Part shown: in pieces, positions 9,788 to 64,000 of the stretch
How the letters are laid out: each line of letters starts with the position of its first letter
How positions within the stretch are numbered: position 1 is the first letter of the stretch
Assembly (NCBI GenBank): GCA_045106455.1
Contig: JBGCEL010000037.1
Span: 649-64,648 of the forward strand
Direction: 5' to 3'
From: Gammaproteobacteria bacterium
GTDB taxonomy: Bacteria > Pseudomonadota > Gammaproteobacteria > Steroidobacterales > JBCCMA01
DNA length: 64,000 nucleotides
Made by a program: the position numbers and the translations under genes
Notes under the pieces: model-generated
Databases searched by the model: none
Seen by the model: the letters and a program-made list of their open reading frames with translations, nothing else
What the model was told of the DNA's origin: nothing

Positions 9788-9840
9788 TTTGCAGTAGCAA
9801 GGTTTTGTTCTAACTAGTACAAAGAGAGCAGCCATGGTCA

Positions 9841-17697: not shown

Positions 17698-18092
17698 AAG
17701 CACCACCTCCGGTTTATGATGTCAGACTGTGCTCTTGGAAAAGCTTATTTCGTCCGACGTTTATCGTTATAGCTCGTGGTGCATTGTTTCTTGGCAATGC
17801 AGGGCACACGGTACGTTAAAACGGCGAGCAAGGCCATGTAAGGCATACACTGAGTTTGTAAAGCAATGTGAAATGAGATTACGAACTTTTTCGTTCTGGG
17901 CCTCACATAATTCACTAAGTGCCACAAAAAAACGGAAAATTTTCGTGTTGCATAGCGTCAGGCTGTGATTTTTTGCTTATAATCTGATCACCGCAGCGGG
18001 CTCCCAATTGCAGCACGCCTGTTGCGGTCGCAGGTTTTCAAGAAAGATCGGCGTACCAAAACAACTAGAACGAAAAAAAGCAGACAATCAAC

Positions 18093-34535: not shown

Positions 34536-34856
34536 ATAATGCATAGGCGCCGGCATCAATCAAGGAAGTCGGTGTCCTGTGTTAGTTATGTTTAGTGACC
34601 TGTGGCCAGCGGTCTACAATCGTTCATTCCCCATAAATAACAGGGTTTAACCGTTTGACCTCGAAGTGGCGCCGGACAGGTGACACCGCGAGACATATGT
34701 TTATAACGGTATTTGACTTTAAGTCTGCCGCCTTGCGATTATCCCGTCACCGTCACGCCCGCTGAGCGTCGGACAATAATAAAACGAATGCTTGTGCGGC
34801 GCTTCAAAACACTGGGCGTGACTTCTGTTGGTTTAATGATCCCCGGGGAGGGAAAT

Positions 34857-37727
34857 ATGAAAAGGTATCGACGTAACGTCGTCGCTGGCTTGTGTGTGAC
34901 GGCAACCGCCGCCATGAGCTACAGCGCAACAGCCGATGAGAAAGAGCCGAAAGAGGGTATGTCCGCGAAAGAGCTGAGTGCAGCCTGCGCCATGCTCGAC
35001 GATTCCAAGAAGCGTCCGTACATGGATGGTCTGCTGAACTACCTGTTGGTACAGTGCGGACGCACTAATGAGCTTGGCGGCGCAGAAACGGTTCGCCACA
35101 GTTCTGAAAAATCGACCAACCGCATTCCGGGTACGGATGTGGCGGTCAATGACGCCTCGACTGATACGGGCACGGCCCGCACGCAGAACGAAACCTCGCT
35201 TGCGCTTGATCCTGTGACCGGCACGATCTGCTCGGGTTTCAATGATTCAACCTCTGGCGTGACGACGGGGCAGGGCTTCACCGGCTTCGCACGTTCTACG
35301 GACGGCGGCGCCTCATTCACCGACAACGGTGCATTTGATTCGGCCAGCTCCGGTGATCCGAGCATGATCTGGCGTCAAGCCGACGGCAATTTCTACCTGG
35401 CCACGCTGCGCAACGGCGGTCTGGGCATTTATCGCTCATCGGACGATTGCCAAACGATGGACTTCATCGCGCAAGCCTCAGATGGCGGCGATGACAAAGA
35501 GCTCCTCGCGGTTGACAACAACCCCGGCAGTGCCAACTTCGGCCGCATCTACATGGTGTGGACGGACTTTGGTCTGGACGCGTCCATTTACTCGACGTTC
35601 TCCGACGACGGCATCAACTGGTCACCGCAGGTTCGCATCAGCGCACCAGGCGGCGGCGTTCAGGGTGCATGGCCGATCGTTGCCCCTGACGGCACGTTCT
35701 ACGTTTCATGGGTACGCTTTAACGGCGCGACCATCGATATGGAAGTAACGCGTTCGGTTGACGGCGGTAACACCTTCACGCAGACCACCAATCCTTTGAC
35801 CGGTGGTGTAAACCCTGCTGATGCCGCGGCCACGGGCGCTTGCGGTCGTTCTGCATTGAACGGCAACGTGCGTTACCTGGCTTCGCCACAAATCGGCGTC
35901 ACGCCAAACGGCGACCTGCACATTGTGTATAGCTACGATCCTGATAGTGCGAACACCGGCGATACGGTTGACGTGTTCTACCGTCGCTCAATGGATCAGG
36001 GCAACACCTGGATGCCGGAAATTCGTGTGAACGATGATGCTACGCAGACCGATCAGTTCTTCCCAACGCTGAGCACGGGCCCTACGGGTCGTGTGGTTAT
36101 TGCCTGGTACGATCGTCGTCTTGACGAAACCGACAACCTGTTTGTTGATTACTACGCTGCCATGTCGGAAGACGGTGGTGCATCGTTTGGTGTTAACGAG
36201 CGCATTTCGGACGAGTCTTCGCCGATTACGCTGGATCCAAACCTCGCCACTTGCTACCACGGTGATTACGATCAGAGCTTCCAGACGGCTTCTTCCGCTT
36301 TCATCCAGTGGGCCGATGACCGCGGTGTGAATGGTTCGAACGATCCAAACACCTACCTTGACGAAAACGTCTTTGAGCCGGACTTCTTCCTCACCGGCGC
36401 CGATCCGATTGCTTCGGTTTGCGCACCGGATGATGCGGTTTACGGTATCGATGTTGGTCAGGCACTGGGCTTCTCTGATCCTGTGACCATGTCGTCAATG
36501 GGTGTTCCTGCTGGTGCCACCGGCAACTTCAGCGTGAACCCTGTAGCACCTGGTAGCAGCACGGTCTTCACCGTCAGCAACACCGCTGGTGCCGCTGCGG
36601 GCAACTACGTCATCGATGTGACCGGTACGGCGGGCGCCAAAGAGCGTTCGGCACAGCTGGTGCTGGCTCTGTCCACCGACACGCCAGACGCAGCCATGCT
36701 GGCCGCGCCTATCGACGGTGCCACGGAACAGTCCAACTCGCCGTCATTCACGTGGGCCGCTGCGGCTCAGGCTGCGAACTACACGATCGAGATTGCGACG
36801 GATGCTGGCTTTGCCAACATCATTGAAACCGGTACGACAACCGAAACCTCGTACAACGCAACCACGACGCTGCAGCCGCTGACCGAGCACTTCTGGCGTG
36901 TCTCTGCGGACAACCAGTGTGGTGCTGGCGATGTCTCGGCAACGTTCTCGTTCACGACGGCAAACGTAATCTGCATCGTGTCCAACACGGCGATTCCCGA
37001 CAACAGCGCGGCTGGTCTGGACAGTGCCGGTTCGCTGGCAGCCGGCGGCACGTTGACGGATCTCGACGTATCATTGCTGGTCACGCATACGTGGGTAGGC
37101 GACCTCGCCGCGACCCTGACGCATGAAGACACCGGCACGAGCGTGACGTTCTATGATCGTCCTGGCGTACCTGCTACGGGCTTTGGCTGCAGCGGCAACG
37201 ACATCGACGCGACGTTTGATGACGATGCAGCAGTGCCGGTTGAAGACGAATGTCAGGACTCACCAGCCATTGGCGGTACGTTCAGCCCGAGCAACCCGCT
37301 GTCCGTCTTCAACGGTGAAGACCTGGCTGGCACCTGGACGCTGAACATCAGCGATAACGCTGGTGCTGACCTGGGTACGCTCAACGAGTGGTGCCTGTTG
37401 CCTGCAACGAGCGGCGGTTCACCTGATTCAGATGGCGACGGCGTCACTGATGACGTGGACAACTGCACGATGGTGGCCAATGCTGATCAACGCGACACCA
37501 ACGGCGACGGCTTCGGCAACGCTTGCGATGCCGACCTGAACAACGATTGCATTGTGAACGTCGTTGATCTGGGTCTGCTGCGCTCGGTGTTCTTCACCGC
37601 GGACGACGACGCCGATCTGAACGGTGACGGCATTGTCAACGTGGTGGATCTTGGTCTGCTGCGTCTTGGATTCTTCAACCCACCGGGACCGGCGGTTGAG
37701 CCAAACGCGTGCACGCCTGCTCAGTAA
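34857..37727 (+). CDS. secreted BNR/Asp-box beta-propeller protein with P-domain and C-terminal TSP3 + dockerin-like module
   Basis: ATG at 34857 with GGGGAGGG upstream. Signal MKRYRRNVVAGLCVTATAAMSYSATA. Five Asp-box-like motifs (STDGGASF, SDDGINWS, SVDGGNTF, SMDQGNTW, SEDGGASF). Ig/FN3-like segments. Proprotein-convertase P-domain-like VTHTWVGDLAATLTH..GTWTLNISDNAGADLGTLNEWCL. C-terminus DSDGDGVTDDVDNCTMVANADQRDTNGDGFGNACDADLNNDCIVNVVDLGLLRSVFF..DLNGDGIVNVVDLGLLRLGFF. Confidence 0.85.
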   Translation: MKRYRRNVVAGLCVTATAAMSYSATADEKEPKEGMSAKELSAACAMLDDSKKRPYMDGLLNYLLVQCGRTNELGGAETVRHSSEKSTNRIPGTDVAVNDASTDTGTARTQNETSLALDPVTGTICSGFNDSTSGVTTGQGFTGFARSTDGGASFTDNGAFDSASSGDPSMIWRQADGNFYLATLRNGGLGIYRSSDDCQTMDFIAQASDGGDDKELLAVDNNPGSANFGRIYMVWTDFGLDASIYSTFSDDGINWSPQVRISAPGGGVQGAWPIVAPDGTFYVSWVRFNGATIDMEVTRSVDGGNTFTQTTNPLTGGVNPADAAATGACGRSALNGNVRYLASPQIGVTPNGDLHIVYSYDPDSANTGDTVDVFYRRSMDQGNTWMPEIRVNDDATQTDQFFPTLSTGPTGRVVIAWYDRRLDETDNLFVDYYAAMSEDGGASFGVNERISDESSPITLDPNLATCYHGDYDQSFQTASSAFIQWADDRGVNGSNDPNTYLDENVFEPDFFLTGADPIASVCAPDDAVYGIDVGQALGFSDPVTMSSMGVPAGATGNFSVNPVAPGSSTVFTVSNTAGAAAGNYVIDVTGTAGAKERSAQLVLALSTDTPDAAMLAAPIDGATEQSNSPSFTWAAAAQAANYTIEIATDAGFANIIETGTTTETSYNATTTLQPLTEHFWRVSADNQCGAGDVSATFSFTTANVICIVSNTAIPDNSAAGLDSAGSLAAGGTLTDLDVSLLVTHTWVGDLAATLTHEDTGTSVTFYDRPGVPATGFGCSGNDIDATFDDDAAVPVEDECQDSPAIGGTFSPSNPLSVFNGEDLAGTWTLNISDNAGADLGTLNEWCLLPATSGGSPDSDGDGVTDDVDNCTMVANADQRDTNGDGFGNACDADLNNDCIVNVVDLGLLRSVFFTADDDADLNGDGIVNVVDLGLLRLGFFNPPGPAVEPNACTPAQ

Positions 37728-37975: not shown

Positions 37976-38572
37976 ATGAAACAAAAAACTTATTTTTATC
38001 CAAAAGCAATGGCCCTTTTAGCCAGCATGCTGCTTGGCGCTCAAGCACAAGCCGCTCTGCTGACCTTCAACCTTGGCTGGAGCGGGAGTGCACTTGGCAA
38101 CTCGGCCTCCGCAACAGCGGTTCTGGTGGTGGATGACGAAATACTGCCGAATCCCGGCTCCACCGGGCTCAACGGCGAATCGGTGTTATTCGGCGATCTT
38201 GGCATAGTCAGTTTTGACATCGTTGTGACCGGGGCGTCCAGCGGCAACGGATCGTTTTCCACCTCAGACTTCATCGTCGCCGCGTGGGATACAGGCGGTA
38301 TGGCACTGGACCTGACCACCGAGCTCGTGGGCCAGACGACCACCGGTGCGGGATGGGGTACGAGCGACAGTTCCAGCGGCGATTTCAATGTATTCACCAA
38401 CATCGGCAGTGCACCCAGCGGCACGTTTTTCTTTACGCTTACCACCGATAGCGGGCTGGGCGATGACATGTTGCTGACGAATTTTACGCCTGTGCCGGTC
38501 GGTGCGGCCTTGCCGCTTTTGATTAGCGCCATGGGCACCCTGGGCTTTATGCGCCGCCGACGTAACGGCTGA
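37976..38572 (+). CDS. small secreted protein with PEP-CTERM / VPLPA-CTERM-like C-terminal sorting signal
   Basis: 198 aa. Signal peptide MKQKTYFYPKAMALLASMLLGAQAQA. Gly/Ser/Thr-rich ~145-aa beta-type body. C-terminus TPVPVGAALPLLISAMGTLGFMRRRRNG, i.e. a Pro-containing motif, a hydrophobic helix and an Arg cluster, the architecture of exosortase-type sorting signals. Confidence 0.75.
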   Translation: MKQKTYFYPKAMALLASMLLGAQAQAALLTFNLGWSGSALGNSASATAVLVVDDEILPNPGSTGLNGESVLFGDLGIVSFDIVVTGASSGNGSFSTSDFIVAAWDTGGMALDLTTELVGQTTTGAGWGTSDSSSGDFNVFTNIGSAPSGTFFFTLTTDSGLGDDMLLTNFTPVPVGAALPLLISAMGTLGFMRRRRNG

Positions 38573-40566: not shown

Positions 40567-43023
40567 ATGTTACGGACCAAACTATCCCTATGCGCTTGCA
40601 TCAGCGCAGCGCTGCTACCTACTGCGGTTGCCCAAACCGGCGGCGATCCGCTACTGAGCACCGAACGATTCAGTACCGTCCCGGGTAGCGGCGGCGCTCA
40701 AATCGACAGTGCTGATGTCAATAGCGACGGCAATATGGACTTGGTTGTCACGGAGAACGCCGCCGGCGGCTTCTCCGTGCATCTTGGTGACGGTGAGGGC
40801 GGTTACACGCTGTTTGGGTCCCACCGCCGCCTCACGTTCTCCCAGAACGCCGCTATCGGCGATATCAATAACGACGGCGATGTTGACGTTGTGATTCGTG
40901 AAGCGCTCAACAGCAACGAACTCACCCTCTTTCTTGGTAACGGCGACGGTACCTTCGGGGCCGGCATCGCTGAGAATTTCGGACTGACCAATATTCTGGA
41001 AATTCAAATCGGCGATCTGGACGGCGATGGCAATCCTGAACTGGTCGCGATGACCTTTCTTGATGCCGATTTCTCATCCCAGCTGAACATTCTGCCCGGT
41101 CTGGCCGGTCCCGGTTTTTTCGGTCCCGCCGAAACGACCGCGCTGGGCGTCAACACCGATACCTTTGTCCGTTTCGTTGACCTCAACGATGATGCTGCCC
41201 CGGAATTGGTGATCACCGCTGGCTTCCCGGTCAACGGACATCTGGTCTTAATGAACGACGGCGCGGGCGTCCTGACGCAATCGGAGCAAGGCTTCCTGGA
41301 CGCTCAGACCAACTTGCTGTTGCCGGTAACCGTGGCAGACGCCAACGGCGATGGCAACACTGATTTGATTTTTGGCGGACGGATTGGCGGAGCCGGTACG
41401 GTCGGCGTTATGGAAGGCAACGGTGCCGGTGAATTCGGCACGGTCATCACGTCCACCGTTGGTCGCAACGCGGTTGAATCAGTGGTCGCGGACGATTTTT
41501 GACGGCGACGGTGATATCGATGTTGCTGGTGTGGCTTTTCTTGACGATGCACTGCTCTGGCTGGCAGGCAGGCAGGCAACGACGATTCGACCTTTACGCC
41601 AACCGCACGTGCCGGCACAGGTGACTCCCCCTTTGCTGTCGTCAAAACCGATGCAAACGGTGATGGTATCGACGATCTGGCTTCGGTGAACATCGTGTCG
41701 GCAGACTTTGCCGTTCATATTGGCACCGGTGATAGCCGTTTTTTTGAAACGCCGCGTCGCAATGCGATCGGTGCTGGCGTCGCTGCCGTGGCCATTGGCG
41801 ATTTGACCAACAGCGGTGTCGCGGAAATTGTTACCGCCAATGCCGCTTCCGGAAGCCTCACGGTTCTCTCACGCCTTGATCAAGAATCGTTTATCAGTCG
41901 TGAAGATTTGACCGATGGCATCGTTGACCCGCTCGACGTCCAAATTGTTGCCGTCAATGGCGACGAATTTGCCGACGTAATTGTGGCGGATCGTTTTCTT
42001 GACAGCATGCTGATTCTGGCTGGCAACGGTGCGGCGAGTTTCGATGCACCGGTGATGCTGCCCGCGTGCGACGCGCCAACCCGTTTGGACTTTGGCGATG
42101 TGAACGGGGACGGTAGTGACGACATCGTTGTTGCTTGTTTCGCATCGGACGACATCGCCGTATTGCTGAGCGATAACGCCGGTGGCTTCACCGCCGCCAC
42201 TACGTTTGCCGGCGTGGGCGAGCCACAGGACCTGCTGTTGCGCGACATTGACGGCGACACCAACCTCGATGTCGTCCTCGCGGATTCCACCGACAATAAC
42301 CCGGCGATCCGCATCGCCTTCGGCGCCGGTGACGGGACGTTCAGCGCGCCGGTTTTGGCAGCGCCTGGCGCGGTCATTGCTGCGCTGGATGTCGGTGATA
42401 TCAATAACGACGGTGCGCTCGACCTGGCCATTGCGGATCTGGGGCAGGGCGTGCGCATTGCTCTGGGTCTTGGTAACGGTAGTTTTGGTGCACCTTTCGC
42501 AGCTCCAGGCTCAAACATCCCTGTAGCCGTGGGACTGGTCGACTTTGACGGTGACGGCTTTGACGATGTCGTGTCTCTACAGGCCGGTGGCGGCGAGCGT
42601 TCACGTGCGACCTCTGTCGCGATCAGCAACGGCAACGGATCCTTTGGACGTGAACGCCGCTTTGCGACAGCCACCGGTTCCAATGCAGGCTTTGCTGAGC
42701 CGGGTATCCCGCGCACGCTGAATGTAGCCGACGTCGATAATGACGGCCGTCAGGACGTGGTTGTCGGAGCCGCTGCGGCAGAATTCGACGGTAGCCTCTC
42801 GGTAAACTTTAACCGCGCAGAGGGCATCGCTCAGGTGGATACCGACGGTGACGGCGTGGTCGATGCGATCGACAACTGCCCAAACCTTATGAACGCTGAC
42901 CAGCGCGACACCAACGGTGACGGATTTGGCAACCGCTGTGACCCCGATCTGAACAACGACAACATCGTTAACGTGATCGATTTGGGCATTCTGCGCAGCT
43001 TCTTCTTCAACGAACCTGGCTAA
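40567..43023 (+). pseudogene. FG-GAP/VCBS-repeat protein with C-terminal TSP3 + dockerin-like module, interrupted by two frameshifts
   Basis: ORF 40567-41502 carries AGGAG, ATG and signal MLRTKLSLCACISAALLPTAVA, and ends ..VVADDF-stop inside a T5 run (41496-41500). The repeat continues in frame +1 as DGDGDIDVAGVAFLDDALLWLAG. It returns to the original frame after (GGCA)4 at 41563-41578 as NDDSTFTPTARAGTGDSPFAVVKTDANGDGIDDLASVN.., joining ORF 41686-43023. FG-GAP loops occur throughout (DVNSDGNMDLVV, GDINNDGDVDVVI, GDLDGDGNPELVA, and others). Confidence 0.8.
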
Positions 43024-46715: not shown

Positions 46716-47546
46716 TTACTTGGCCCAGCCTTGCGCCGCCTCGCCCTGCTGCAACGCTCGTACTTCATCCAGATTGGCGGGTGGCATTAACCACATTGGC
46801 TTGACGGCTTTTGCCCACGCAAGGAGTCCTGGTGGGAATTCAGCGTGGCTCTCAACCCGCCAGGAACGCAGATGATAGATCGCCTTACCTGACCCAGCCC
46901 AGTTTGGTAGCGCACCGTATCGTTGCCAACTCATTTGATGGGGCTCATCGATATCGCCACCGGTGTGTATAAAGAAATCGTAGTTTTCCCAAGCTTGATA
47001 TTGATTTCCGTTTGGCAACGGAAAATCCAAAAATACCGACGCTGTAACCGTCATTGTATCGGCACCCATTTTGCCGATACGCATTCCGTCTTCGGACACA
47101 ATTTTTTGAATGCGCTCTCCCACACCCTGCTCAACATCACCGTATATTTTTCCATCCACCATACGATAACTGATGAGTTGGTAAGGATAGGCGATAGGCT
47201 CCACTGGGTTGCCGTTGTGTTCTGAGAGAATGTCGCCGGTGATCGGGTCGGTATAGGCAAACGTCTTTCGAGTAAGTTGCACTACGTCTTCGCCTGAACG
47301 GTCCGGCCAAACTACGGTCGAGCTATCGAAGCCAATCATGCCGAACAGTTTTTCGCCCGATGGATAAGCGTACACGCCTCCCTCCGCTATCCAATGTACG
47401 GGCTCTCCGGTTCCTGCGCGGGCGTCTACCCACTGACGCAGTGGTTCGGGCGCGTTGAGTCTGACGTCCGGCGCGCTATCTACTGCGCTGCTCGAGGCGC
47501 ACGACGCAACCGTAATCATCAAAAGAAAGAACAAAGCAAATCGCAT
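46716..47546 (-). CDS. lipoprotein of unknown function
   Basis: ATG at 47544-47546 (the track starts at TTG 47558) gives MRFALFFLLMITVASCASS, a signal plus lipobox. Weak similarity to the Tat-signal protein at 2391-3338, e.g. the DPITGD/NPITGE region and a C-terminal H..SWQ..G segment. Confidence 0.65.
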   Translation of the reverse strand: MRFALFFLLMITVASCASSSAVDSAPDVRLNAPEPLRQWVDARAGTGEPVHWIAEGGVYAYPSGEKLFGMIGFDSSTVVWPDRSGEDVVQLTRKTFAYTDPITGDILSEHNGNPVEPIAYPYQLISYRMVDGKIYGDVEQGVGERIQKIVSEDGMRIGKMGADTMTVTASVFLDFPLPNGNQYQAWENYDFFIHTGGDIDEPHQMSWQRYGALPNWAGSGKAIYHLRSWRVESHAEFPPGLLAWAKAVKPMWLMPPANLDEVRALQQGEAAQGWAK

Positions 47547-47723
47547 GGCATGCCCCAATGTGCGTTTTTATTCAGTTACTGCCAGGTGGTGCATCAGAAA
47601 AAGACAATCGCTACGCTTATATCCACCACCATTAGTTGTGGATTTATACAACATCTTGTTGGCTTTTTCTGCCGCCTGTCATTAACTGAAAAATGCAACG
47701 AAAAGCCACTGCCACGGTACGAC

Positions 47724-49810: not shown

Positions 49811-50047
49811 AACTCGATAATAAGGCCTGACTTGCACTGGCCCTAGGCGAGCGAAGCGCACGACTAGATTTTTTTGTATCAACTTGTCGCAACCGGGGTG
49901 GTTTCGAACATTGGATACATCATCGCCATTGGGTACATAGCGTACAGCACATATTCTAAAAAATATGACTCACCGCAAGACCAGACGCTATCGACGACAC
50001 ATTGTCACGGGTATCGCGGACCTCGCTTTGCACCCAAAGGAACCATC

Positions 50048-52051
50048 ATGATGCGCTTTTCAACGTTCGTTATTCTGCTATCGACTTTTTTGATGGCGGC
50101 TTGCACCAGCCATTCACAGGCACGCAGCAGTGCTGCGCCGGCGGCTTATGCAATGCCGAACTCACAGGTCGTACCGATCAAGAACAGTCACAATGGCGGG
50201 GAATATGAGCTCTATATCAAGCTGCCAGAAGACTATGCGGAGAATCAAGACACAGCCTATCCGGTCATCTACTACGCAGATGCGGTGTGGCATCTCGAAA
50301 TGCTCTCTGCCGCAACACAATACATGCTGGAAGACGTTATTCTGGTCGGCATTTCCTGGCGACAGGACATCGCCGATGATTTGAAGGAAAAATATGGGAA
50401 CCACGCTAGTCGATTCACCGACTACTCATTCTGGGAGAAAGCTAACCCTAATCATCCCAAACTAATATTTGGCCAAGCTAAAAATCACTTGGCGTTTATT
50501 CGCGATGATGTCATTCGGTACGTCGATGACACCTATCGCACGGAACCGGACAGTCGTACCTACTTCGGCTACTCATTAAGCGGCGCGTTCGGGGCTTATG
50601 CATTGCTGACGCAACCTGAGAGTTTTGACAACTACATTCTTGGCAGTCCATTGGACAGCGGCCTGATCTCCTACCTTGCTGACATTGATTCTGAGCTCGG
50701 CACTTTCGAGGCAAACAATAACGATTCCCTGAATGCGAACGTTTTTATCGCCTATGGCACGTTGGAGGAAGGCGCGCCTGAAGCGACCGACGACTTTATT
50801 AAGGACTTTATTAAGTTACTGGGCAATCAACGAAAACTCGGTCTATCCATACAAACCCAAGCACTTGAGGGCGATCATGAAACCGCTTTCCCAAGGGTTT
50901 CACTGGAAAGTGTCGCGTGGTTATCCAGCCTGATAAGCAAGATTTCAAGTGACGACCCCGAGCTCTCGTTTAGAGAAGTCCCAATTCTCAACAAAGCATT
51001 TATCAGCTCAGCCCCAGAAGATAGGAAAGATGGCATTGCCGTCGGCGCATTGGGTGTCGATGCCGGTGATAAGGAGCGGATTCTAGCTCTGGCACAAGAG
51101 ATTGCAGACCATAAACACGGACGGTTCGACAGTTTTTTGATTGCTCATAAAGACAAGCTGATTTTTGAATCCTATTACGCACGCGGTCGCATCGACCTGC
51201 CCCATTTTCAGGCGTCGGCAACGAAAGCCTATACCGGTTTACTACTTGGCCGCGCCATCCAGTTGGGGTATCTCACCATGGAGGATTTAGACAAACCCTT
51301 GGTTAGCTTCCTCAAAGACCTGGACTCTGCGAAGTTTGTTGATGGTGCAGAATCGATCACCCTGAACCACGCGTTGACCATGCGTTCCGGTATACGCATT
51401 AGTGACGAACAGAAACAAAAAATGGAGGAAAACCCAGACCGATTAAAGGGTCAGGGAGAGGTCCAGGCGCTACTGGAGCATAGCGCCCCGATCACTGAAG
51501 AATCCCAAGTGTTCAAATACGCTGGCGGCCCGGGATTGGTCATGCAAGTGATTGAAGCGGTCGTACCCGGATCAGCACAGGATTTCGCTAAAAGTGAGCT
51601 ACTCGACAAATTAGGCATCGAAAATTATCGCTGGCCCATTCATGAGCCAACCGGTCTGCCGGTATCTGGATCGCGCGCGCAATTGACATCGCGTGACATG
51701 CTTAAGTTTGGCACCTTGGCCAGCAACAACGGTAAATACAATGGCGAGCAGCTGATCCCACAGGCCTTTGTGGGTAAAGCAATCGCCAGAATTCTCACTA
51801 CCGACAGCGACTATGAAGTGCACTACGGCGGCAAAGACGTCTCCAATCAAGGCTACGGGTATTTTTGGTGGAGCGCAGACTTAAACAGCGACCATAGAAA
51901 CTATTTCACATCGTCTGCGCAAGGCGGCTACGGTCAATTCATCATTCTGATCGACGAATTGGATTTGATGGTTGTCTTCACAGCGCATGATAACGAGACC
52001 AATTACCTGCAACTTACTGCCGAGCGGATTCTTCCGGCTTTTATTGACTAA
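50048..52051 (+). CDS. lipoprotein fusing a putative-esterase alpha/beta-hydrolase domain to a beta-lactamase-fold serine hydrolase domain
   Basis: ATG at 50048 (MMRFSTFVILLSTFLMAACTS, signal plus lipobox). The N-terminal half resembles the enterochelin-esterase/esterase-D-type family (YPVIYYADAVWH, nucleophile elbow G-Y-S-L-S-G). The C-terminal half has SxxK S-A-T-K in FQASATKAYTGLLLGRAI. Confidence 0.85.
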   Translation: MMRFSTFVILLSTFLMAACTSHSQARSSAAPAAYAMPNSQVVPIKNSHNGGEYELYIKLPEDYAENQDTAYPVIYYADAVWHLEMLSAATQYMLEDVILVGISWRQDIADDLKEKYGNHASRFTDYSFWEKANPNHPKLIFGQAKNHLAFIRDDVIRYVDDTYRTEPDSRTYFGYSLSGAFGAYALLTQPESFDNYILGSPLDSGLISYLADIDSELGTFEANNNDSLNANVFIAYGTLEEGAPEATDDFIKDFIKLLGNQRKLGLSIQTQALEGDHETAFPRVSLESVAWLSSLISKISSDDPELSFREVPILNKAFISSAPEDRKDGIAVGALGVDAGDKERILALAQEIADHKHGRFDSFLIAHKDKLIFESYYARGRIDLPHFQASATKAYTGLLLGRAIQLGYLTMEDLDKPLVSFLKDLDSAKFVDGAESITLNHALTMRSGIRISDEQKQKMEENPDRLKGQGEVQALLEHSAPITEESQVFKYAGGPGLVMQVIEAVVPGSAQDFAKSELLDKLGIENYRWPIHEPTGLPVSGSRAQLTSRDMLKFGTLASNNGKYNGEQLIPQAFVGKAIARILTTDSDYEVHYGGKDVSNQGYGYFWWSADLNSDHRNYFTSSAQGGYGQFIILIDELDLMVVFTAHDNETNYLQLTAERILPAFID

Positions 52052-52137: not shown

Positions 52138-53319
52138 ATGAAACGCCACCTTAGTTTTACCCGCTTGCTCACCCTGTCAATGTCGATCGCTTTCTTAAGC
52201 GCTTGTTCTTCAGGTTCCAACAACACGCCGCCAATCGACACCAGTGTGTCGTTGCGCACCCAACTTAAAACCGTGGTAGATAATGCGGTAGATAGCGGCC
52301 TGCCAGGTGTCTCTTTGCACCTGCAGGACGGTGACGAACACATCAGCATCGTCGCGGGTGTCGTCAATCAGGGCACAGCCGAACCCATGACATCGTCGAG
52401 CCTGTCTCACGCTGGCAGCATCGGGAAGGCCTTTACGGCCACGCTGGTACTGCGATTAGTCGATATGGGTTTTCTACGACTCGACGACCCGATCGATCTT
52501 TGGCTTGATCCTGCAATGAGCGCTTTGATCGCCGAATCAGACAAGATCACGATAAAAATGTTACTGGCGCACACCAACGGCATTCAGAACTATTTTGAAA
52601 TTCCTGAATTCCAAATTGCCTTCCTTGAAGCGCCCGGAAGAATCTGGGCGCCGATGGAATTACTCGGCTATCTTGAAAACACGGAAAATCACTTTGCGCC
52701 CGGTACAGAGTATCTATATACCGATACGAGCTTTTTGTTGGCCGGAATTATCGCGGAACGCGTTACGGGGGTATCCATCGGTATGGCACTGCGGCAATGG
52801 GTGTTCGAGCCCGCCGGTCTCGACAATACCTTTGGGCCGTATGAAACCCTGGGTCAACCCGAGACGATGCGTGCGTATCTCCCCATCAGCTTTTTCGAAG
52901 ACCGGAATCTGGATGTAGATTTGGATCTACCGACGGACGGGTCGGATGTGGATGCCACGGCATGGCTCAATTCGGAAGGAGACGGTCATGCATCGGTCCA
53001 ATCGATTCCTGCAGACTTAAATACGTTCATCCGTATTTTGATCGATACCGATACGTTGGTATCCGAGGAGCTAAAAGCTCAAATGATGACCGAGTCCTTC
53101 CCTGGGTCATCGCAATATGGGCTTGGATTGCAGATCATTGATGACGGCGACAGATTTGGGCATGACGGAAAAGGTCTCGGGCTCCACTCATCGATGACTT
53201 ACTCCCCGTCCGAGGATTTGAGTCTTGCCACAGTCGTAAACGCTTCGTTTGGCAACTATGACGAACTTTACGGCGAGTTTGTGAATCAACTGTATCAGGT
53301 TTTAGAACGCCGTCAGTGA
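52138..53319 (+). CDS. beta-lactamase-fold serine hydrolase (D-Ala-D-Ala carboxypeptidase/esterase-like), predicted lipoprotein
   Basis: 393 aa with lipobox-like AFLSACSS. SxxK S-I-G-K in HAGSIGKAFTATLVL. YxN-like YTDTSF region. Confidence 0.85.
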   Translation: MKRHLSFTRLLTLSMSIAFLSACSSGSNNTPPIDTSVSLRTQLKTVVDNAVDSGLPGVSLHLQDGDEHISIVAGVVNQGTAEPMTSSSLSHAGSIGKAFTATLVLRLVDMGFLRLDDPIDLWLDPAMSALIAESDKITIKMLLAHTNGIQNYFEIPEFQIAFLEAPGRIWAPMELLGYLENTENHFAPGTEYLYTDTSFLLAGIIAERVTGVSIGMALRQWVFEPAGLDNTFGPYETLGQPETMRAYLPISFFEDRNLDVDLDLPTDGSDVDATAWLNSEGDGHASVQSIPADLNTFIRILIDTDTLVSEELKAQMMTESFPGSSQYGLGLQIIDDGDRFGHDGKGLGLHSSMTYSPSEDLSLATVVNASFGNYDELYGEFVNQLYQVLERRQ

Positions 53320-57065: not shown

Positions 57066-60000
57066 CTAGTTAGCACACAAGTCCGTACCCGCACTAGGCC
57101 CCGGAGACTGAAAGAACATGGCGCGCAGGCGCCCCAAATCCACCACGTTTACAACACCATCCCCATTGAGATCGTAGAGCGCCTCGCTGCCAAAAAAGTT
57201 TGCCCGTAGCTGCCCCAGATCCACCACGTTTATCACGCAGTCGTTGTTGAAGTCAGCGTCGCAGGCATTGCCGTAGCCGTCACTGTCCGTGTCATTTTGC
57301 ATCGGGTTGACGAAGAAAAGACAGTTGTCGACGCCGTCCAGTGTCCCGTCAGCATCGGTGTCCGCCGTTTGTGGATCACTACCAAGCTCGAGCTCCAGAA
57401 GATCCGGCAAACCGTCGTTGTCCGAGTCGAGCACCGGCTGCAAGACAAGACCTTCCGCAAAGCCGAGCGCAGGCTCAGACGCACCCCCACTGACGCTGAG
57501 CGGATCCGCCACGCCAACGCTTGCGTGCAAAATCTCATCGGTATTCCAACTGGCAACAAACACGCCGCCGTCACTGAGCGTCACGGCATCGCGAATGCCG
57601 TTCGCCGGCATGGCAATCGATTCCACCAGTGCGCCATCCGCCTCGTGCAGTGTGACCACGTCTTCCTGTGCCACCCAAATGCGACCGCTGCGCTCCACGG
57701 CAATACCTCGCGCATCCACGTTTGCGATCAACGTGGTTTCCATACCGGTCGTCACATCGACGTGGCGTACGGCGCTATTAAATGTATCGCTTACCAGCAA
57801 GTTTCCGTCCGCATCCAGCGCAATGTGCAGCGGCGGCCCGGTCAGTTCGGTCACCAAAGTGCGTGCGCCGGTTGCAAGATCGATCCGTACGATCTGATCG
57901 ACGCCACCCTGATCGGCCAGATACGCCGTGCGACTGTCCGCCAAAACCAAACCAACCGGCAGGCCAAGCGCGGGGCCTGGTTGCCCGTTACCCGAGACCA
58001 CCTCAGCCGTACCGCTTTGCGGAAACACACGTAACACTTCGTCCCCGCCGAGATTGGCGACCAAGATGGAGCCACTGCGCTCTACAGCAAGGCCAATCGG
58101 ACGATCCAGTGTCGCCACGCTACCGATCGTTGCGTTGTTGGCCACCAACGTACGTTCACCGCTCAAAAGATTCACGCGGACGATCGCGTTATTGTCGCGC
58201 TCGGTCACCAGCAAATCCGCGAAACCCTGAGCGACCAGCGGCGAGGTGGCGGTGAGCATGACTTCATCTCCATCGCTCATGTAATCGCCGTCGCTATCGC
58301 GCTCACGTGGGTTGGTGTTCAGATTCTGCTCCTGGACATTCGTCAGTGCATCCTGGTCCGAATCGAGCTCGCCCTCCCCCGCCACCAGCGGATTAAAATC
58401 AAACTCAACTTCGAAGGCATCCAGCAAGCCGTCGTCGTCGGTGTCCGCCGCAAACGGGTTGGTGCCGGCGTCCTGCTCCTCAGAGTTCGTTAAGCCGTCG
58501 CTATCTGAATCAAGATCGCCGTCGCCACCCACCAGTGGATCAAACCCGTTGGCGATTTCAAAGCCGTCGAGCAGCCCGTCATTGTCACTGTCGCTGTCCA
58601 CCGGGTCGGTACCAAGCGCGGCTTCCTCGGAATCCGACAAGCCGTCGCCGTCGGTATCGGCTGCTGCCGGATTCGTGGTCGTGGTGGGTGTGATGTCGGC
58701 AATAAAAATGCCTAAATCGGTCCCCAGCAGCGGGCCGGCACCATCCGGGTCACCGATGCCCGCGGTCAATCCGCGCTCGACACCGTCGCCGATGCCGTCG
58801 CCGTCGCTGTCAAACAAACATGGATTGGTTTCACCGGCATCCACCTGACCGTTGCGATTGGAATCTTCAAGACCGTCGCTCAAACCATCGTCGTCGCTGT
58901 CGACATCCAGAGCACTGGTACAGCCGGCGTCTTCCAGATCATTGGCAATACCGTCGCGATCAAGATCCTGCGTCAAATCAACAATGCGCAAGGACGTGCC
59001 GCCGAAGTCTGTAACGTCGCCGGCGAGCGTAGCACTGCCACCAAATGGCGTCGCAAAGACCGGCTCGGGCGCCTCGAAGGTAAAGCGCAACGCCGCCGCT
59101 TCGTTTGGAATATTCGCCAACCCGAGCGTGGTGCCAACGTAGCCGCCAATGCCGACTTTCAAAAAGGCGAGTTGACCACCAATCTTGCCAACATTCAGCG
59201 TCTGATTTTCGAAACGATTGTCGCGGAAGCTGTAGGTCACGTTGACCTCAACGCCTCCCGAGGGCTGCACCACATCCAGGTAGTTGCCCAGGCCCGCGTC
59301 GATGGACTCAACATCAAGCGTCAGTGCCGTGACACCTGAGCCGATGCTGCCATCAGGAAAGGTCACATCGACCGGCCGGCTGAACGTTACATCTGCTTTG
59401 AGTTTTGGATCAAAGAACAGGGATTGATCCCAACCGTTCCAGAACACGGCGTCCAGATCGGCGATGTCCAGGCTCAGCGAGGCCACTTCACCCAGCGCGG
59501 TGTCGATGCCCGTCGTCAGCAGGGGATTGGCGAGTCCCAGCAAGCCATCCACATCGGCCTCTACGCGCAGCTTGTCCGAGCTAAGCGATGACGAATCGGT
59601 AATTAAAGCCGAGCCAAAACTCTGATCGGTAAAGTTTAGGACGGGACGGAAACCGTTCGGCGCCGTGTTGGTCAAAATACCGGCTTCGATGGCGTGGCGT
59701 TTAGGCACCAGCAACTCGCTGCCGAATTGATCCTCGGTGCCACCACGATAGTCCGCCGGCACCGGTGTATTGACCACAGGAATACTCAACTTCATCGCCG
59801 CAATCTCGCGCGAAATCGGTTGGCTGTTGGGAATATCGACGCCGGGACAATCCACCCCATCTTCAAACGGACACTGACCGGGCGTTGAAATACTCATACC
59901 CAATGAAAAACCCGGATCAAAGACGTTCACAAACGGCACGTCGTCCGCGGTCAGCGCAAACACAACGTCCTGAAATTCGGATGGCGCCTGATCGACACCG

Positions 60001-62699
60001 TCCATGAAGCGAAACTCGAGCGCGTCGCCGGAAAGAAAACTAACGGACGCCAGAGTGCCGCCCTCGCTGAAATTGGCATCCAGAATGGACTTGCTGCCGT
60101 GTAGCTGTGCACCCGTACGGGGGTTCATGTTCCAGTACTCCGCCGTAATCTCAACGCCAATGTTGAACTGGTAGTCAGCCACAATGCTCTCGGGTGGGAA
60201 TACCGAGTGCATGGTCGAGCCCGTGCCGTTGGTCGCGTTGTAGCGCTTGGGCGCGTGTTCAAAATAGAGGCGGAAACTGTCGCCCGGCATGACGGCCGAT
60301 GTATCGGTGCGCAAGCGGGCCTCGGTTTCGTAGTGCACATCCACCGTACCGGGATTGCCATCCGCGCCGGGGCCGGCTCGAAACTCGATACCACCGCTGG
60401 CAGTCGTGGTTTGGGTGACCAGTGCGCCGACCGTAAAGGTCTCAGCATTCGGCGCGACGGTGGGCCGTGGGCCAATGCCCGGCACCCCGGTGCTAAACGT
60501 AGACGGAACGTAGGGACCACCGGGTAAGCTGTTTACTTCACTCACCGTATAGGGCTCCAGCGTAAAACTAAATCCGCAGCCGCCAGCCGAATCGACCCCA
60601 GGTGCCAGGTTACCAAAGACGCTCGTGCAACAATCCATCTCATAGCTGTTGAGATTGATGTCCGTGCCGTCACGGCACTGATTGCGCGTCGGCGACACGC
60701 GAAAGTTCTGGCACGCCCGGAATAATGGTCGGGAAGGTGGCTCGTAAACCGTCACAGGGTAGCTGGTTGCGTCGCACTGGGCGATGGCTTGCTCCCACCC
60801 TTCTTGCACGGCGTGAAGCGGTGGCCGTTGATCTATGTCGACCACCCGACCGTTGACCTGCGTCTGATTGGCTTGCGGCGGCAGGAAGTCGGCGATATCC
60901 AGCCCAACGCCTTCGATCGGATCAGGAAACAGCGCTTGATTGCGCGCCTCAAAGGTCAGTGGCGCGGATACTAGCGCCGGTGTCTGTCCCGCGTTGTCGA
61001 CCAACGGGTCCGTACCCAGCACGCGTATTTCGATACCGTCGTCCAGACCGTCGCCATCTGAATCGATGCTGAAGGGATCTGTTCGGTTGGCCTGCTCCGC
61101 CAGGTTCGTCAAGCCATCGCCGTCGGGATCGTTCAAGGTGTCGCCGGCACTCAGCGGGTCGAAGCCAAATTCAACCTCGAACGCATCATCAAGCTGATCC
61201 GCGTCGCTGTCCGCGTTTAGTGGATCGGTTTGGTGCACAGCGATTTCTTCGACATCCGACAATCCGTCGGCATCGCCGTCGGCGCTTCGAGGATCACTGC
61301 CGGCCGTGTCTTCCTGAGCATTGCTCAGGCCATCGCCATCCGCATCGCCGGCGCCCTCGTTGTCTCCACCATTTGGAATAAAGTCGTAGCGAATCTCAAA
61401 GCCATCGCGCAGCCCGTCATCGTCGGTGTCAGCGACCAGTGGATTCGTGCTGTGCGTAAACAGCTCGGCACCGTCTACAAGGCCATCGCCGTCCGTATCG
61501 GCAAGCGTCGGGTTGGTGGTGTGGGTATTGACCTCGGCGCCGTCAAGCAAGCCGTCGCCGTCGGTATCTTTGACCAACGGATCGGTCGCGTGGTCGTTGA
61601 CTTCCGCGGCATCGTCGAGCTCGTCGCCGTCCGTATCAGCGAGCACGGGATTGGTGCCCAGATCATTGACCTCAATACCGTCCTCAATGCCGTCATCGTC
61701 GCTGTCGGGCGCTAGTGGATCGGCACCGTTGGCCTGTTCCTGCGCGTTGCTGAGCCCGTCGTTGTCGAGATCAAGCAGTTCGTCGCCGGTCGCCAGCGCG
61801 TTGAGGCCGTTGGCCAGCTCGAACCCGTCGCTCAAGCCATCACCATCGCTGTCCGCGACCAGCGGATTGCTGCCCGCTGCGATTTCAATACCATCGATCG
61901 CACCATCTGCGTCCGTGTCAGCGCGAAACGGATCAGTGCCGTGGAGGCCTCGTTCATCAACATCCGCGATGCCGTCCTGATCCGAATCCGGAGCAGTCAC
62001 AACACTGACGCTCCGCCAATGAGTGCTGGCACGCCCGTCTGAATCAAGGGAACCCCAGGTGAAAAATGTATCGTTGGTCGCCACCACACGACCGATCACG
62101 TCGGCGGCGCACAGCTCACCGTCGATCAAAACATCGACATTTTCCTGCACCGGGTTGTACACGATGGCTACATCGTAATAGCGCGTCTCGGGTCCAAGTA
62201 CGCCGCAGCTCGAGTCGCCCCCGCTATTGATGGCGCTCGCCAGCATCTTGCCGTTGTCGACGCCAAAGATGACGGAGTACTCCTGGGACGTGTTCCCGCC
62301 CATGGCCTGACGCAGGAGCATCGTGGCGGCAAAACTGGCCGCCTCGGTAGCGCCGGGTGTAAAAGCCTGACGCCGCACACGTGCACGCACCGCCCAGCCG
62401 CTCGGGTTATAGAAATCGACGTTGCTCGTTCTATAGGAGCCACGCGTGCCGCCGCCCCCGCTGGTGTCGCTGATGCGCCAGAAGGAACACGGATCAGCGT
62501 CACACCCGGCGGCACCAATATCATTGTCGCCCGGGGCCATGATCACGGCCGGGTTGCTGTCACCCAGAGACCAACCTTCCTGCAGTGGGTTGGCATCGCC
62601 GGTGTGGGTAATGATTACGGTCTCTGCCTGTGCGACGGCCGATGTGCAAAGCGCCAAAAGGAAGCAGGCGAAACGAAAAAATCTGGTTCTGTTAGCCAT
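57066..62699 (-). CDS. giant secreted thrombospondin-type-3-repeat protein with NHL-like beta-propeller and C-terminal dockerin-like module
   Basis: 1877 aa. Signal MANRTRFFRFACFLLALCTSAVAQA. Layout by residue: ~210-aa jelly-roll-like N-domain; TSP3-like block I (236-568, 14 DxDxDG-type loops); unassigned Cys-containing region (569-1243); TSP3-like block II (1244-1488); NHL/YWTD-like propeller repeats (1489-1745). C-terminus: DTDADGTLDGVDNCLFFVNPMQNDTDSDGYGNACDADFNNDCVINVVDLGQLRANFF..DLNGDGVVNVVDLGRLRAMFF. Confidence 0.9.
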   Translation of the reverse strand: MANRTRFFRFACFLLALCTSAVAQAETVIITHTGDANPLQEGWSLGDSNPAVIMAPGDNDIGAAGCDADPCSFWRISDTSGGGGTRGSYRTSNVDFYNPSGWAVRARVRRQAFTPGATEAASFAATMLLRQAMGGNTSQEYSVIFGVDNGKMLASAINSGGDSSCGVLGPETRYYDVAIVYNPVQENVDVLIDGELCAADVIGRVVATNDTFFTWGSLDSDGRASTHWRSVSVVTAPDSDQDGIADVDERGLHGTDPFRADTDADGAIDGIEIAAGSNPLVADSDGDGLSDGFELANGLNALATGDELLDLDNDGLSNAQEQANGADPLAPDSDDDGIEDGIEVNDLGTNPVLADTDGDELDDAAEVNDHATDPLVKDTDGDGLLDGAEVNTHTTNPTLADTDGDGLVDGAELFTHSTNPLVADTDDDGLRDGFEIRYDFIPNGGDNEGAGDADGDGLSNAQEDTAGSDPRSADGDADGLSDVEEIAVHQTDPLNADSDADQLDDAFEVEFGFDPLSAGDTLNDPDGDGLTNLAEQANRTDPFSIDSDGDGLDDGIEIRVLGTDPLVDNAGQTPALVSAPLTFEARNQALFPDPIEGVGLDIADFLPPQANQTQVNGRVVDIDQRPPLHAVQEGWEQAIAQCDATSYPVTVYEPPSRPLFRACQNFRVSPTRNQCRDGTDINLNSYEMDCCTSVFGNLAPGVDSAGGCGFSFTLEPYTVSEVNSLPGGPYVPSTFSTGVPGIGPRPTVAPNAETFTVGALVTQTTTASGGIEFRAGPGADGNPGTVDVHYETEARLRTDTSAVMPGDSFRLYFEHAPKRYNATNGTGSTMHSVFPPESIVADYQFNIGVEITAEYWNMNPRTGAQLHGSKSILDANFSEGGTLASVSFLSGDALEFRFMDGVDQAPSEFQDVVFALTADDVPFVNVFDPGFSLGMSISTPGQCPFEDGVDCPGVDIPNSQPISREIAAMKLSIPVVNTPVPADYRGGTEDQFGSELLVPKRHAIEAGILTNTAPNGFRPVLNFTDQSFGSALITDSSSLSSDKLRVEADVDGLLGLANPLLTTGIDTALGEVASLSLDIADLDAVFWNGWDQSLFFDPKLKADVTFSRPVDVTFPDGSIGSGVTALTLDVESIDAGLGNYLDVVQPSGGVEVNVTYSFRDNRFENQTLNVGKIGGQLAFLKVGIGGYVGTTLGLANIPNEAAALRFTFEAPEPVFATPFGGSATLAGDVTDFGGTSLRIVDLTQDLDRDGIANDLEDAGCTSALDVDSDDDGLSDGLEDSNRNGQVDAGETNPCLFDSDGDGIGDGVERGLTAGIGDPDGAGPLLGTDLGIFIADITPTTTTNPAAADTDGDGLSDSEEAALGTDPVDSDSDNDGLLDGFEIANGFDPLVGGDGDLDSDSDGLTNSEEQDAGTNPFAADTDDDGLLDAFEVEFDFNPLVAGEGELDSDQDALTNVQEQNLNTNPRERDSDGDYMSDGDEVMLTATSPLVAQGFADLLVTERDNNAIVRVNLLSGERTLVANNATIGSVATLDRPIGLAVERSGSILVANLGGDEVLRVFPQSGTAEVVSGNGQPGPALGLPVGLVLADSRTAYLADQGGVDQIVRIDLATGARTLVTELTGPPLHIALDADGNLLVSDTFNSAVRHVDVTTGMETTLIANVDARGIAVERSGRIWVAQEDVVTLHEADGALVESIAMPANGIRDAVTLSDGGVFVASWNTDEILHASVGVADPLSVSGGASEPALGFAEGLVLQPVLDSDNDGLPDLLELELGSDPQTADTDADGTLDGVDNCLFFVNPMQNDTDSDGYGNACDADFNNDCVINVVDLGQLRANFFGSEALYDLNGDGVVNVVDLGRLRAMFFQSPGPSAGTDLCAN

Positions 62700-63103: not shown

Positions 63104-64000
63104 ATGGAGTTACCAGACATCGCGCACCAGTTGCGCCGGCTGCTGTACGGCGCGCGGAACCTAAGAACAAATGCCGGAAAATGCATCGCAGCATTTGCCT
63201 TGATTGCCCTGAGCGCCACCTCTCACGCAACGGTGGTGCTTGAAGAGAGTGAGGGCTACCAACGAGTTCGAGTGACCGACGCGGAGTTTGTAGACCTGCT
63301 TGAGGACGAATTCAGTTCGGCTGAAGGTGTATTGCTAAAAGCAGGCAAAACCCGGGCGGCGCGCACCCCTAATCAGGAAATGCATGTCATTAAGACCCTG
63401 CGTGCAGCCTACCAAGCGAACCTACCCGACTGGGTGCAAGAAGACATTCTTGAGGACTACGGGTTCACGAGTTGGGGCGAAGTGTCGGACAGCCAGCTTG
63501 ACGAGACCATTGAGACGCTCGTGATCAGTCTCGATTTGGTGGATTACATTAACGATCTGGATGAGGACACCAACAAGAACTCTGCCCAGAAGTGGTTTTG
63601 CAGCAAGAAAAAGAGCGCGAGAACGAAGAACATTTCCAAAACGATCAATGCCGACAAGCAAAACCTGTTCTCGTATAACAATCATGGCGTAAGCGCCAAT
63701 CTTGAGGCCGATTACATTGGCAGCGGCTCATTCAAGGTGGACGTGCATTACTACAAGCACAAGCGCTGTGGCATTACCTACAAACTGTCGTTCAATTACG
63801 CAGATATTAAAGTCGATGCTGATCTCGGCGGTGAAATCGGTCTAACGGGTGAAGTGGCGTACAGCAGTTCTCGCAAAATTCTGCAGAACCGTCTTACCTT
63901 GTGGGAGCACGACACGGGTTTTTGGGCCTGGATTATCTACTTCGACGTTGACATGGAGGTGGGCATCGATGTGGGTGTTCAAATTGACGTGGAGGCCAGT
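63104..64000 (+). CDS. hypothetical secreted protein, 5-prime partial view (runs off the window)
   Basis: Not in the supplied ORF track. I translated it by hand from ATG 63104 and found 299 sense codons with no stop up to 64000: MELPDIAHQLRRLLYGARNLRTNAGKCIAAFALIALSATSHATVVLEE... It has a signal-like hydrophobic segment followed by a beta-rich region (..GSGSFKVDVHYYKHKRCGITYKLSFNYADIKVDADLGGEIGLTGEVAYSS..). No family recognised. Confidence 0.55.
   Translation, partial: MELPDIAHQLRRLLYGARNLRTNAGKCIAAFALIALSATSHATVVLEESEGYQRVRVTDAEFVDLLEDEFSSAEGVLLKAGKTRAARTPNQEMHVIKTLRAAYQANLPDWVQEDILEDYGFTSWGEVSDSQLDETIETLVISLDLVDYINDLDEDTNKNSAQKWFCSKKKSARTKNISKTINADKQNLFSYNNHGVSANLEADYIGSGSFKVDVHYYKHKRCGITYKLSFNYADIKVDADLGGEIGLTGEVAYSSSRKILQNRLTLWEHDTGFWAWIIYFDVDMEVGIDVGVQIDVEAS

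Follow-up and report, generated by a model that had tools for sequence, protein, structure and literature searches.

We analysed a 64-kb window of genomic DNA (by the window we mean the whole stretch studied; coordinates count from its start) and, within it, an open reading frame (ORF) at 57066..62699 on the minus strand. The ORF has 1877 codons and an ATG start, with a GAGGGA Shine-Dalgarno-like motif about 7 nt upstream of the ATG. Its product, the 1877-aa target protein of this study, is recorded as MFK7886562.1, 'MAG: hypothetical protein [Gammaproteobacteria bacterium]', MAG denoting a metagenome-assembled genome. An earlier note on this DNA had described the protein as a secreted giant with thrombospondin type 3 (TSP3) repeats and an NHL-type propeller, and had staked that description on domain searches; these came out positive, with TSP3_bac, TSP_3, NHL and SGL all above cutoff. 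From the N- to the C-terminus the ORF encodes:

62625..62699, minus strand: Sec type-I signal peptide (residues 1-25, read from the translation)
61992..62624, minus strand: N-terminal domain, a predicted ConA-like lectin-type beta-sandwich (residues 26-236, 4 Cys)
60996..61991, minus strand: first TSP3 array, 14 loops (residues 237-568; 22.6% Asp, no Cys)
58971..60995, minus strand: core, a beta-rich domain of an undescribed family (residues 569-1243, 675 aa, 8 Cys)
58236..58970, minus strand: second TSP3 array, 9 loops and a DSNRNG variant (residues 1244-1488)
57432..58235, minus strand: six-bladed beta-propeller of the NHL/SGL type (residues 1489-1756)
57255..57431, minus strand: three terminal TSP3 repeats (residues 1757-1815; Pfam TSP_3)
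57069..57254, minus strand: dockerin-like double F-hand (residues 1816-1877, ending ...FFQSPGPSAGTDLCAN)

The ORF is a real, conserved gene, because an ortholog with the whole architecture exists in another MAG. The ortholog, on a contig of 'Gammaproteobacteria bacterium SGMAG-18', has 1880 aa, an identical order of domains and 74% identity. When the two proteins are compared by segment, identity is highest in the core (80%; about 80% for the core and TSP3 arrays together) and lowest in the propeller (54%), a divergence that fits the expectation for a fast-evolving binding surface. The mature chain of ~193 kDa has a pI of 4.05 (324 acidic versus 78 basic residues), and the number of cysteines is even in every module (4, 8, 2 and 4). 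Together, the acidic pI and the even cysteine counts fit disulfide-bonded extracellular domains in an oxidising, calcium-rich setting. The target is thus a real modular protein of an uncultured marine-type gammaproteobacterium, predicted to be exported and to bind calcium; we count the ORF and its domain identities as established.

The C-terminus of the protein (residues ~1780-1877) forms a unit of 95 aa, hereafter the tag, in which TSP3 sequence is fused to a dockerin-like double F-hand, with four conserved Cys and a terminal PGPS. Its consensus is D.DGDG..D..DNC...N..Q.D.DGDG.GN.CDAD.NND..VN..DLG.LR..FF...D.NGDG.VN..DLG.LR..FF..PGPS. Each 22-residue segment of the double hand carries Asp or Asn at positions 1, 3, 5, 9 and 12 and then DLGxLRxxFF, which is the F-hand pattern of dockerins; in the target both loops read D1 N3 D5 N9 D12 (D1816/N1818/D1820/N1824/D1827 and D1843/N1845/D1847/N1851/D1854). 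Homologous tags reach E values of 2e-9 with the Dockerin_1 model (PF00404), precomputed PF00404 matches are on record for tag homologues, and the labels that NCBI or the source databases give to tag fragments are 'thrombospondin type 3 repeat-containing' and 'dockerin type I domain-containing'. We found no model for the fused TSP3 and dockerin unit in Pfam or NCBIfam.

The same unit ends two further proteins of the window:

37431..37727, plus strand: full tag on a 1004-aa protein (ORF 34713..37727), which has a BNR-like region and a proprotein-convertase P-domain
42838..43023, plus strand: short tag on a 445-aa FG-GAP protein (ORF 41686..43023), consisting of TSP3 and a single F-hand and ending ...FFFNEPG

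The target tag is 59.5% identical to the end of the first over 84 aa and 52% identical to the end of the second over 63 aa. The short tag keeps the terminal PG motif and so appears to be a natural form with one hand, not a truncated one. The claim of a C-terminal module shared within the window therefore stands for these two ORFs but not for the 2466-aa adhesin with SdrD B-like domains (10306..17706), in which within-window comparison found no tag; we rejected sharing with that adhesin.

The tag is widespread. Of 600 candidate sites from a metagenome scan, 474 were confirmed, a lower bound, so that it is present at at least 474 metagenomic sites in sediment, marine and soil samples. We used the 80 best tag loci (L010-L089) to count position, signal peptides and cargo. 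In 71 of the 76 loci with a complete downstream end, the tag finishes no more than 25 residues from the stop codon; in the other five it is internal or N-terminal. Signal-peptide-like N-termini were seen, by a crude heuristic, in 24 of 30 complete tagged ORFs. The cargo of the 33 longest tagged proteins includes peptidases (C25, M14, S8 and M19), GH114, GH16 and lactonase domains, as well as BNR/sortilin, FG-GAP and RCC1 propellers, DUF11 and cadherin-like domains; TSP_3 is found in 27 of these 33 proteins and Dockerin_1 in 18, each of the 18 homologous tags with E<1e-4. The core of the target is absent from all 80 best tagged ORFs. Judged by sequence, the unit is a cargo-independent C-terminal tag, given its terminal position, the signal peptides, the unrelated cargo and the absence of the core. 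Its distribution and terminal position, like the domain identities, we treat as established.

The core is the second unusual part of the protein. The earlier note had left ~675 aa unassigned, and they remain so: residues 569-1243 alone give no Pfam, NCBIfam or PDB sequence match, even at permissive thresholds. A word-indexed search of 5.8 billion proteins with the core returned nothing. When 1.84 billion cluster representatives were scanned exhaustively with HMMER, 49 core clusters came up, 17 of them below 1e-30, with the whole 675 residues matched as one unit. All named members of the family are annotated 'hypothetical protein', and they come from Gammaproteobacteria and Pseudomonadota MAGs and from metagenomes. 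The only match of the core profile among PDB sequences, calmodulin, was discarded, as it arises via the tail and not the core.

Members of the core family (numbered here with a P prefix) fall into two classes. Giants have a lectin-like domain, a TSP3 array, the core and a TSP3 triad in the same order as in the target, whereas stand-alone proteins of 700-800 aa consist of a signal peptide and then the core. Their C-termini differ. P0007, P0009 and P0015 end in the TSP3 and dockerin-like tag, and P0011, P0018 and P0023 in a dockerin alone. P0005 ends in three SLH domains. P0002 has an IPTL-CTERM-like tail, hydrophobic and then Arg-rich (17.4 bits; cutoff 20.5), P0022, P0024, P0028 and P0034 have Gly-rich CTERM tails, and some of the CTERM tails in the family are IPTL/VPLPA-like. 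Because core homologues carry SLH, CTERM or dockerin tails in this place, the tag of the target occupies the position of recognised surface anchors. The previous statement that the protein has no obvious outer-membrane anchor is therefore only partly borne out: the target ends ...SPGPSAGTDLCAN, with no hydrophobic helix and no PEP-CTERM, IPTL or VPLPA sorting signal, but its tail is dockerin-like and sits where homologues carry surface anchors.

In the core, four Cys, R450, an acidic cluster (D474, D481, D483, D513 and D515; core numbering) and a number of Pro and Gly residues are invariant. An AlphaFold model of the core built from a 24-sequence alignment has a pLDDT of 80.6 and a pTM of 0.66. 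It is largely beta, and its strands, at 22-25 residues, are unusually long; a single-sequence model was unusable (pLDDT 34). We rejected an outer-membrane barrel, as the top matches to TonB-dependent receptors reflect only the long beta-hairpins. No internal repeats were found in the core. We conclude that the core is an undescribed and rare, presumably extracellular domain family of ~650 aa and of the 'choice-of-anchor' type; that the family exists and is rare we count as established.

Two side observations concern the family. The distant HMMER matches P0031, P0037 and P0040-P0047, one of them a Planctomycetes-style protein with cadherin-like repeats, cover only the last ~200 core residues (about 470-670), and the C-terminal subdomain may for this reason be an independent evolutionary unit. 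The gene for P0007, a stand-alone core with a tag (L002 2664-8039, also L003), overlaps by 4 nt a gene for an extracytoplasmic function (ECF) sigma factor of the PF07638 type, which is followed by a Ser/Thr kinase-TPR gene. This arrangement suggests an operon; it is absent around the other core-family members examined and is not general.

The TSP3 arrays are the most regular part of the target. A regular expression finds 26 DxDxD loops, 22 of them strict DxDxDG, spaced by 22-28 residues. They start at residues 238-546 (14 loops), 1245-1468 (9 loops) and 1758, 1780 and 1803, in exact agreement with the ~26 calcium loops counted previously as 14, 9 and 3. The Pfam model TSP3_bac (PF18884) scores 188.5 bits over the whole protein (E 1.2e-56, cutoff 25), with 10 stretches passing individually; at this E value the regularity of the loops is far beyond chance. 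The first ~90 aa of the second array contain a Cys pair and are conserved downstream of the core in all giant homologues, and the equivalent segment of the homologues matches positions ~265-345 of the CglD profile. In the terminal triad, the last repeat is of the eukaryote-like, Cys-containing type (DNC...NP.Q.D.D.DG.GN.CD). The isolated tail scores 37 bits with TSP_3 (PF02412; E 2.7e-9, cutoff 25; 21.1 bits in the whole-protein scan), and its repeats match COMP and thrombospondin-2 structures with E values of 5e-14 to 1e-11. A search for recent repeat amplification found no DNA-level tandem repeats in the gene, and the arrays are thus old and diverged.

The propeller, isolated as residues 1480-1757, matches NHL (PF01436) with 28.6 bits (E 1.3e-6, cutoff 20) and SGL (PF08450) with 33 bits (E 6e-8, cutoff 26.3); in the whole-protein scan SGL reaches 24.4 bits, just under cutoff. 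In the PDB it matches Pizza6 (6e-16), the PknD sensor propeller (2e-11) and the NHL domain of TRIM71 (2e-6). The designed Pizza6 propellers themselves derive from the PknD sensor domain. The domain had been called NHL/YWTD-like. The NHL/SGL half of that name holds, and the repeats quoted in its support lie within residues 1489-1756, but there is no YWTD (LDL-receptor class B) signal: neither YWTD nor Ldl_recept_b is among the Pfam matches of this segment at E<=1.

At the other end of the protein, the N-terminus (MANRTRFFRFACFLLALCTSAVAQA, followed by E) has an Arg-rich n-region, a hydrophobic core and a cleavage site between AQA and E, and reads as the Sec type-I signal that had been proposed. 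A lipoprotein signal (LALC) was considered and rejected, since Leu at -1 is atypical for a lipobox and the signal of the ortholog has no Cys. The Pfam scan returned no HemolysinCabind or autotransporter family, which, with the Sec signal, agrees with the lack of type I or type V secretion features noted before. The N-domain matches Sial-lect-inser (PF09264), the lectin insertion of Vibrio cholerae sialidase with a ConA-like fold, only weakly (E 0.004, 17.2 bits; cutoff 25.8). It is, however, homologous to the N-domains of P0004, P0006, P0008 and P0010 (E 1e-21 to 5e-38; 1e-36 to 1e-38 for P0004 and P0006), and the Sial-lect-inser cutoff is passed by the family members P0002, P0003, P0004 and P0006. 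The stretch of P0006 that does so (29.7 bits) lies inside the domain homologous to that of the target. The jelly-roll-like fold suggested for this domain is thus reasonable, being predicted through its ConA-like relatives.

Upstream of the gene, what might be taken for a long leader is the 407-bp gap to a divergent gene, and we rejected the leader. The neighbour (63107..64000, plus strand) starts near 63107 with MELPDIAHQLRRLL... and runs off the end of the window. The 5' region has no Rfam match to a riboswitch or other RNA, nor has any Rfam family a match anywhere in the window, and scans for promoters and terminators of the target were uninformative.

We compared the target with known systems that share one or other of its parts. 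Its best NCBIfam match is CglD of Myxococcus xanthus (NF033765; 182.5 bits, E 1e-53), an integrin-like surface lipoprotein of gliding motility. CglD, which carries COMP-like DxDxDG repeats, sits on the cell surface as a lipoprotein, and calcium-dependent gliding over rigid substrata requires it (bioRxiv 10.1101/2023.10.19.562135). The likeness lies in the long DxDxDG arrays of the COMP/thrombospondin type on a cell-surface adhesion protein. It is confined to the TSP3 repeats; the core alone gives no match, and scores against full-length equivalog models stay below their cutoffs (CglD 182.5 of 400 bits and, for the thrombospondin-3 proteins, MtsC 39.8 of 350 and MtsD 107 of 800 bits), with matches limited to the TSP3 stretches. 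In contrast to CglD, the target has no VWA domain and no lipobox, and it differs also in its core, its additional propeller and its dockerin-like tail.

With the thrombospondin/COMP 'wire' (PDB 3FBY, 1YO8 and 1UX6; E 5e-14 to 4e-7 for the target tail) the protein shares the DxDxDGxxDxxD logic of the calcium loop and the Cys-containing variant. Its arrays, however, are mostly of the Cys-free bacterial kind (PF18884), and it lacks the lectin-like C-terminal globe, the coiled coil and the EGF domains. Similarly, the tag resembles cellulosomal type-I dockerins (PF00404) in having two ~22-residue segments, each with a D1 N3 D5 N9 D12 loop and then a helix, and in its C-terminal place on diverse secreted cargo. 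It differs in its Gram-negative host, in the fusion to TSP3, in the staple of four conserved Cys, in the PGPS end, in the Val-Val at the putative recognition positions 10-11 and in that no cohesin was found in the window. The propeller is like those of M. tuberculosis PknD (1RWI), TRIM71/TRIM2 and Pizza6 (E 6e-16 to 1e-5 over ~180-200 residues, blades of ~43 aa), but it is one module of a secreted giant and also scores with SGL (lactonase/SMP-30), of the same clan.

A further parallel is offered by secreted modular proteins with TSP3 repeats in marine polysaccharide degraders, such as Lam16A of Saccharophagus degradans; in these marine Gammaproteobacteria the repeats serve as calcium-binding linkers of large proteins that have Sec or type II secretion signals (PMC2386152). 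In S. degradans TSP3 repeats are attached to secreted glucanases, and dockerin-like ORFs are present (PMC2386152). Those proteins have glycoside hydrolase (GH) and carbohydrate-binding (CBM) modules and ~4 TSP3 repeats, whereas in the target there are 26 loops, and neither a catalytic nor a CBM module can be recognised. A full-text literature search found dockerins and TSP3 repeats together only in genome-survey mentions. The types of repeat, the propeller and the chemistry of the dockerin-like part are, then, of known kinds; the core family and the fused, disulfide-stapled tag are undescribed in the libraries searched.

We lean, with modest confidence, towards the view that the target is a Sec-exported, calcium-stiffened adhesin or matrix scaffold that is tethered by its dockerin-like tag. 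From the modules described above we infer that the protein is exported across the outer membrane, binds calcium, is tethered through its tag and binds ligands with its three globular modules. The protein would pass through Sec, cross the outer membrane, probably via type II secretion, and reach the cell surface or the matrix. There, the lectin-type N-domain, the core and the propeller would be strung on the two TSP3 arrays of 14 and 9 loops, which would bind many Ca2+ ions and fold into stiff spacers. TSP3 repeats of thrombospondin and COMP are established to be stiff when loaded with Ca2+, and it is by analogy with these structures, with a proposal made for Myxococcus CglD and with the reported calcium dependence of CglD gliding that stiffness is expected here. 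The three globular modules may act as binding modules, and the tag would hold exported proteins, on the cell surface or within the exopolysaccharide matrix, to a partner that they share. A tethering role is suggested by the dockerin-like chemistry of the tag, by its terminal position on diverse cargo and by its replacement with known surface anchors in core homologues.

Several results weigh against this view. On the target itself Dockerin_1 stays below its cutoff (E 0.002, 18.7 bits; cutoff 22.9), and among the window ORFs scanned we found neither a cohesin nor any other partner of the tag. The window also lacks type II secretion genes. Foldseek comparison of the core model with the PDB and BFVD gave noise only (best TM 0.07), so the core has no recognisable fold, and the gene neighbourhoods of seven core-family members have nothing in common, so that no support for a function comes from the context. 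Nor can a function be recognised in the core itself, which could be catalytic, and hydrolases make up much of the metagenomic cargo that bears the same tag.

The last two points would suit an extracellular enzyme, in which the core or the SGL/NHL propeller is catalytic (acting, for example, on a polysaccharide or a lactone) and the tag recruits the protein, along with further tagged hydrolases, into a cellulosome-like multi-enzyme assembly. We consider this unlikely. The core does have invariant Asp residues and R450, but it matches no catalytic family at any threshold, and its invariant residues are mostly Cys, Pro and Gly with an acidic cluster, a pattern that recalls a metal site rather than a nucleophile/acid pair. 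Lactonases belong to the SGL family, yet the propeller is closest to the non-enzymatic sensor and binding propellers of the NHL type (PknD, TRIM71). As for the assembly, the wealth of hydrolases among tagged metagenomic proteins (C25, M14, S8, M19, GH114 and GH16), the enzyme-related look of the tagged window neighbours (a BNR/sialidase-like region with a P-domain, and a weak RGL11_C match) and the precedent of TSP3 repeats on secreted glucanases beside dockerin-like ORFs in S. degradans (PMC2386152) all point to it, but no cohesin scaffold was found among the window ORFs scanned.

It is quite unlikely, in our judgement, that the target is a freely released soluble protein that works at some distance from the cell, for example by buffering calcium or by coating particles or prey, its dockerin-like end being only a calcium-dependent folding cap. 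Release would account for the lack of a partner in the window scans and for the sub-cutoff Dockerin_1 score and, to our knowledge, many non-cellulosomal dockerin-like modules have no known cohesin. A mere folding cap fits poorly, however, with the strong conservation of the tag across unrelated cargo and with the bona fide anchors (SLH domains, CTERM sorting-like tails) that replace it in core homologues. Finally, that the tag is not an anchor but a recognition signal for outer-membrane export or sorting, an analogue of the C-terminal domain (CTD) of the type IX secretion system (T9SS) that is possibly removed after export, is highly improbable: its extreme C-terminal place, very diverse cargo, conserved PGPS end and accompanying Sec signals (24 of 30 complete ORFs) are what such a signal would show, but the window links it to no candidate gene for a translocon or a sortase-like enzyme, it is internal or N-terminal in 5 of 76 loci, and it is predicted to be a disulfide-bonded domain that folds and binds calcium, of a kind that is known to dock proteins to one another.

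A tethered, calcium-stiffened scaffold would be of interest because giant calcium-binding surface proteins shape particle attachment and matrix building in uncultured marine and sediment bacteria. The core brings to this group an extracellular domain of ~650 residues that is foreign to the domain and structure databases and for which a confident predicted model exists, and the tag is carried, in metagenomes, by hundreds of secreted enzymes and binding proteins that are otherwise unrelated. We advance, tentatively and as a somewhat unlikely extension, that the tag, as a functional analogue of the T9SS CTD, PEP-CTERM or the cellulosomal dockerin, addresses proteins of environmental Gram-negatives to an undescribed system of surface display or sorting, and that the core is a new fold defining a 'choice-of-anchor' family. 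If the tag is indeed a tether or a sorting signal, it would define a surface-display route in Gram-negatives and supply a simple sequence rule for predicting the surface-exposed proteome; if it is neither, the target is one more large adhesin-like hypothetical protein.

The three tagged proteins of the window lie near an exopolysaccharide cluster and adjoin a VPLPA-CTERM-like protein, a setting that we count in favour of the adhesin or scaffold view. The cluster comprises Wzz, a BY-kinase-like ATPase, GT2 and GT1 glycosyltransferases, a sulfotransferase, a sugar transferase, a polysaccharide deacetylase and a double-GH16 protein. This last protein (26395..29835, minus strand; 1146 aa) lies amid the glycosyltransferase and sulfotransferase genes, and its two GH16 domains also match SKN1/KRE6. 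Genes for a two-component system, a dehydrogenase, a permease and a TonB_C protein, together with beta-lactamase-family genes, separate the cluster from the target.

The gene for a 198-aa protein (37976..38572, plus strand) follows immediately on that for the tagged 1004-aa protein and is next to the cluster. Its product has a signal peptide and a C-terminal tail, ...TPVPVGAALPLLISAMGTLGFMRRRRNG, which resembles the exosortase-type VPLPA-CTERM signal (TIGR03370, 20.9 bits; cutoff 25.35); no exosortase gene was identified in the window. The 2466-aa adhesin-like ORF (10306..17706), on the minus strand, has at least 11 SdrD B-like and five DUF7507 domains, CarboxypepD_reg/SpaA-type folds, a DUF11 domain and, near the C-terminus, a weak InhA-like MAM region.

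Much of this neighbourhood is not shared with the related MAG. In the related MAG contig L001 (13.9-18.7 kb), the ortholog of the target lies ~5 kb from genes that match window positions 7604-9818 at 80-97% amino-acid identity. By this comparison of sequences, ~47 kb of the window (~9.8-57 kb, with the adhesin, the exopolysaccharide cluster, the tagged proteins and beta-lactamase-family genes) is a variable island, an insertion relative to the related MAG, in which it is absent or replaced. The window also has an unusual local concentration of paralogues: four genes of the beta-lactamase family of serine hydrolases (20..1282, 3335..4567, 49874..52051 and 52138..53319) and two DUF1838 genes (2391..3338 and 46716..47558), in part paired.

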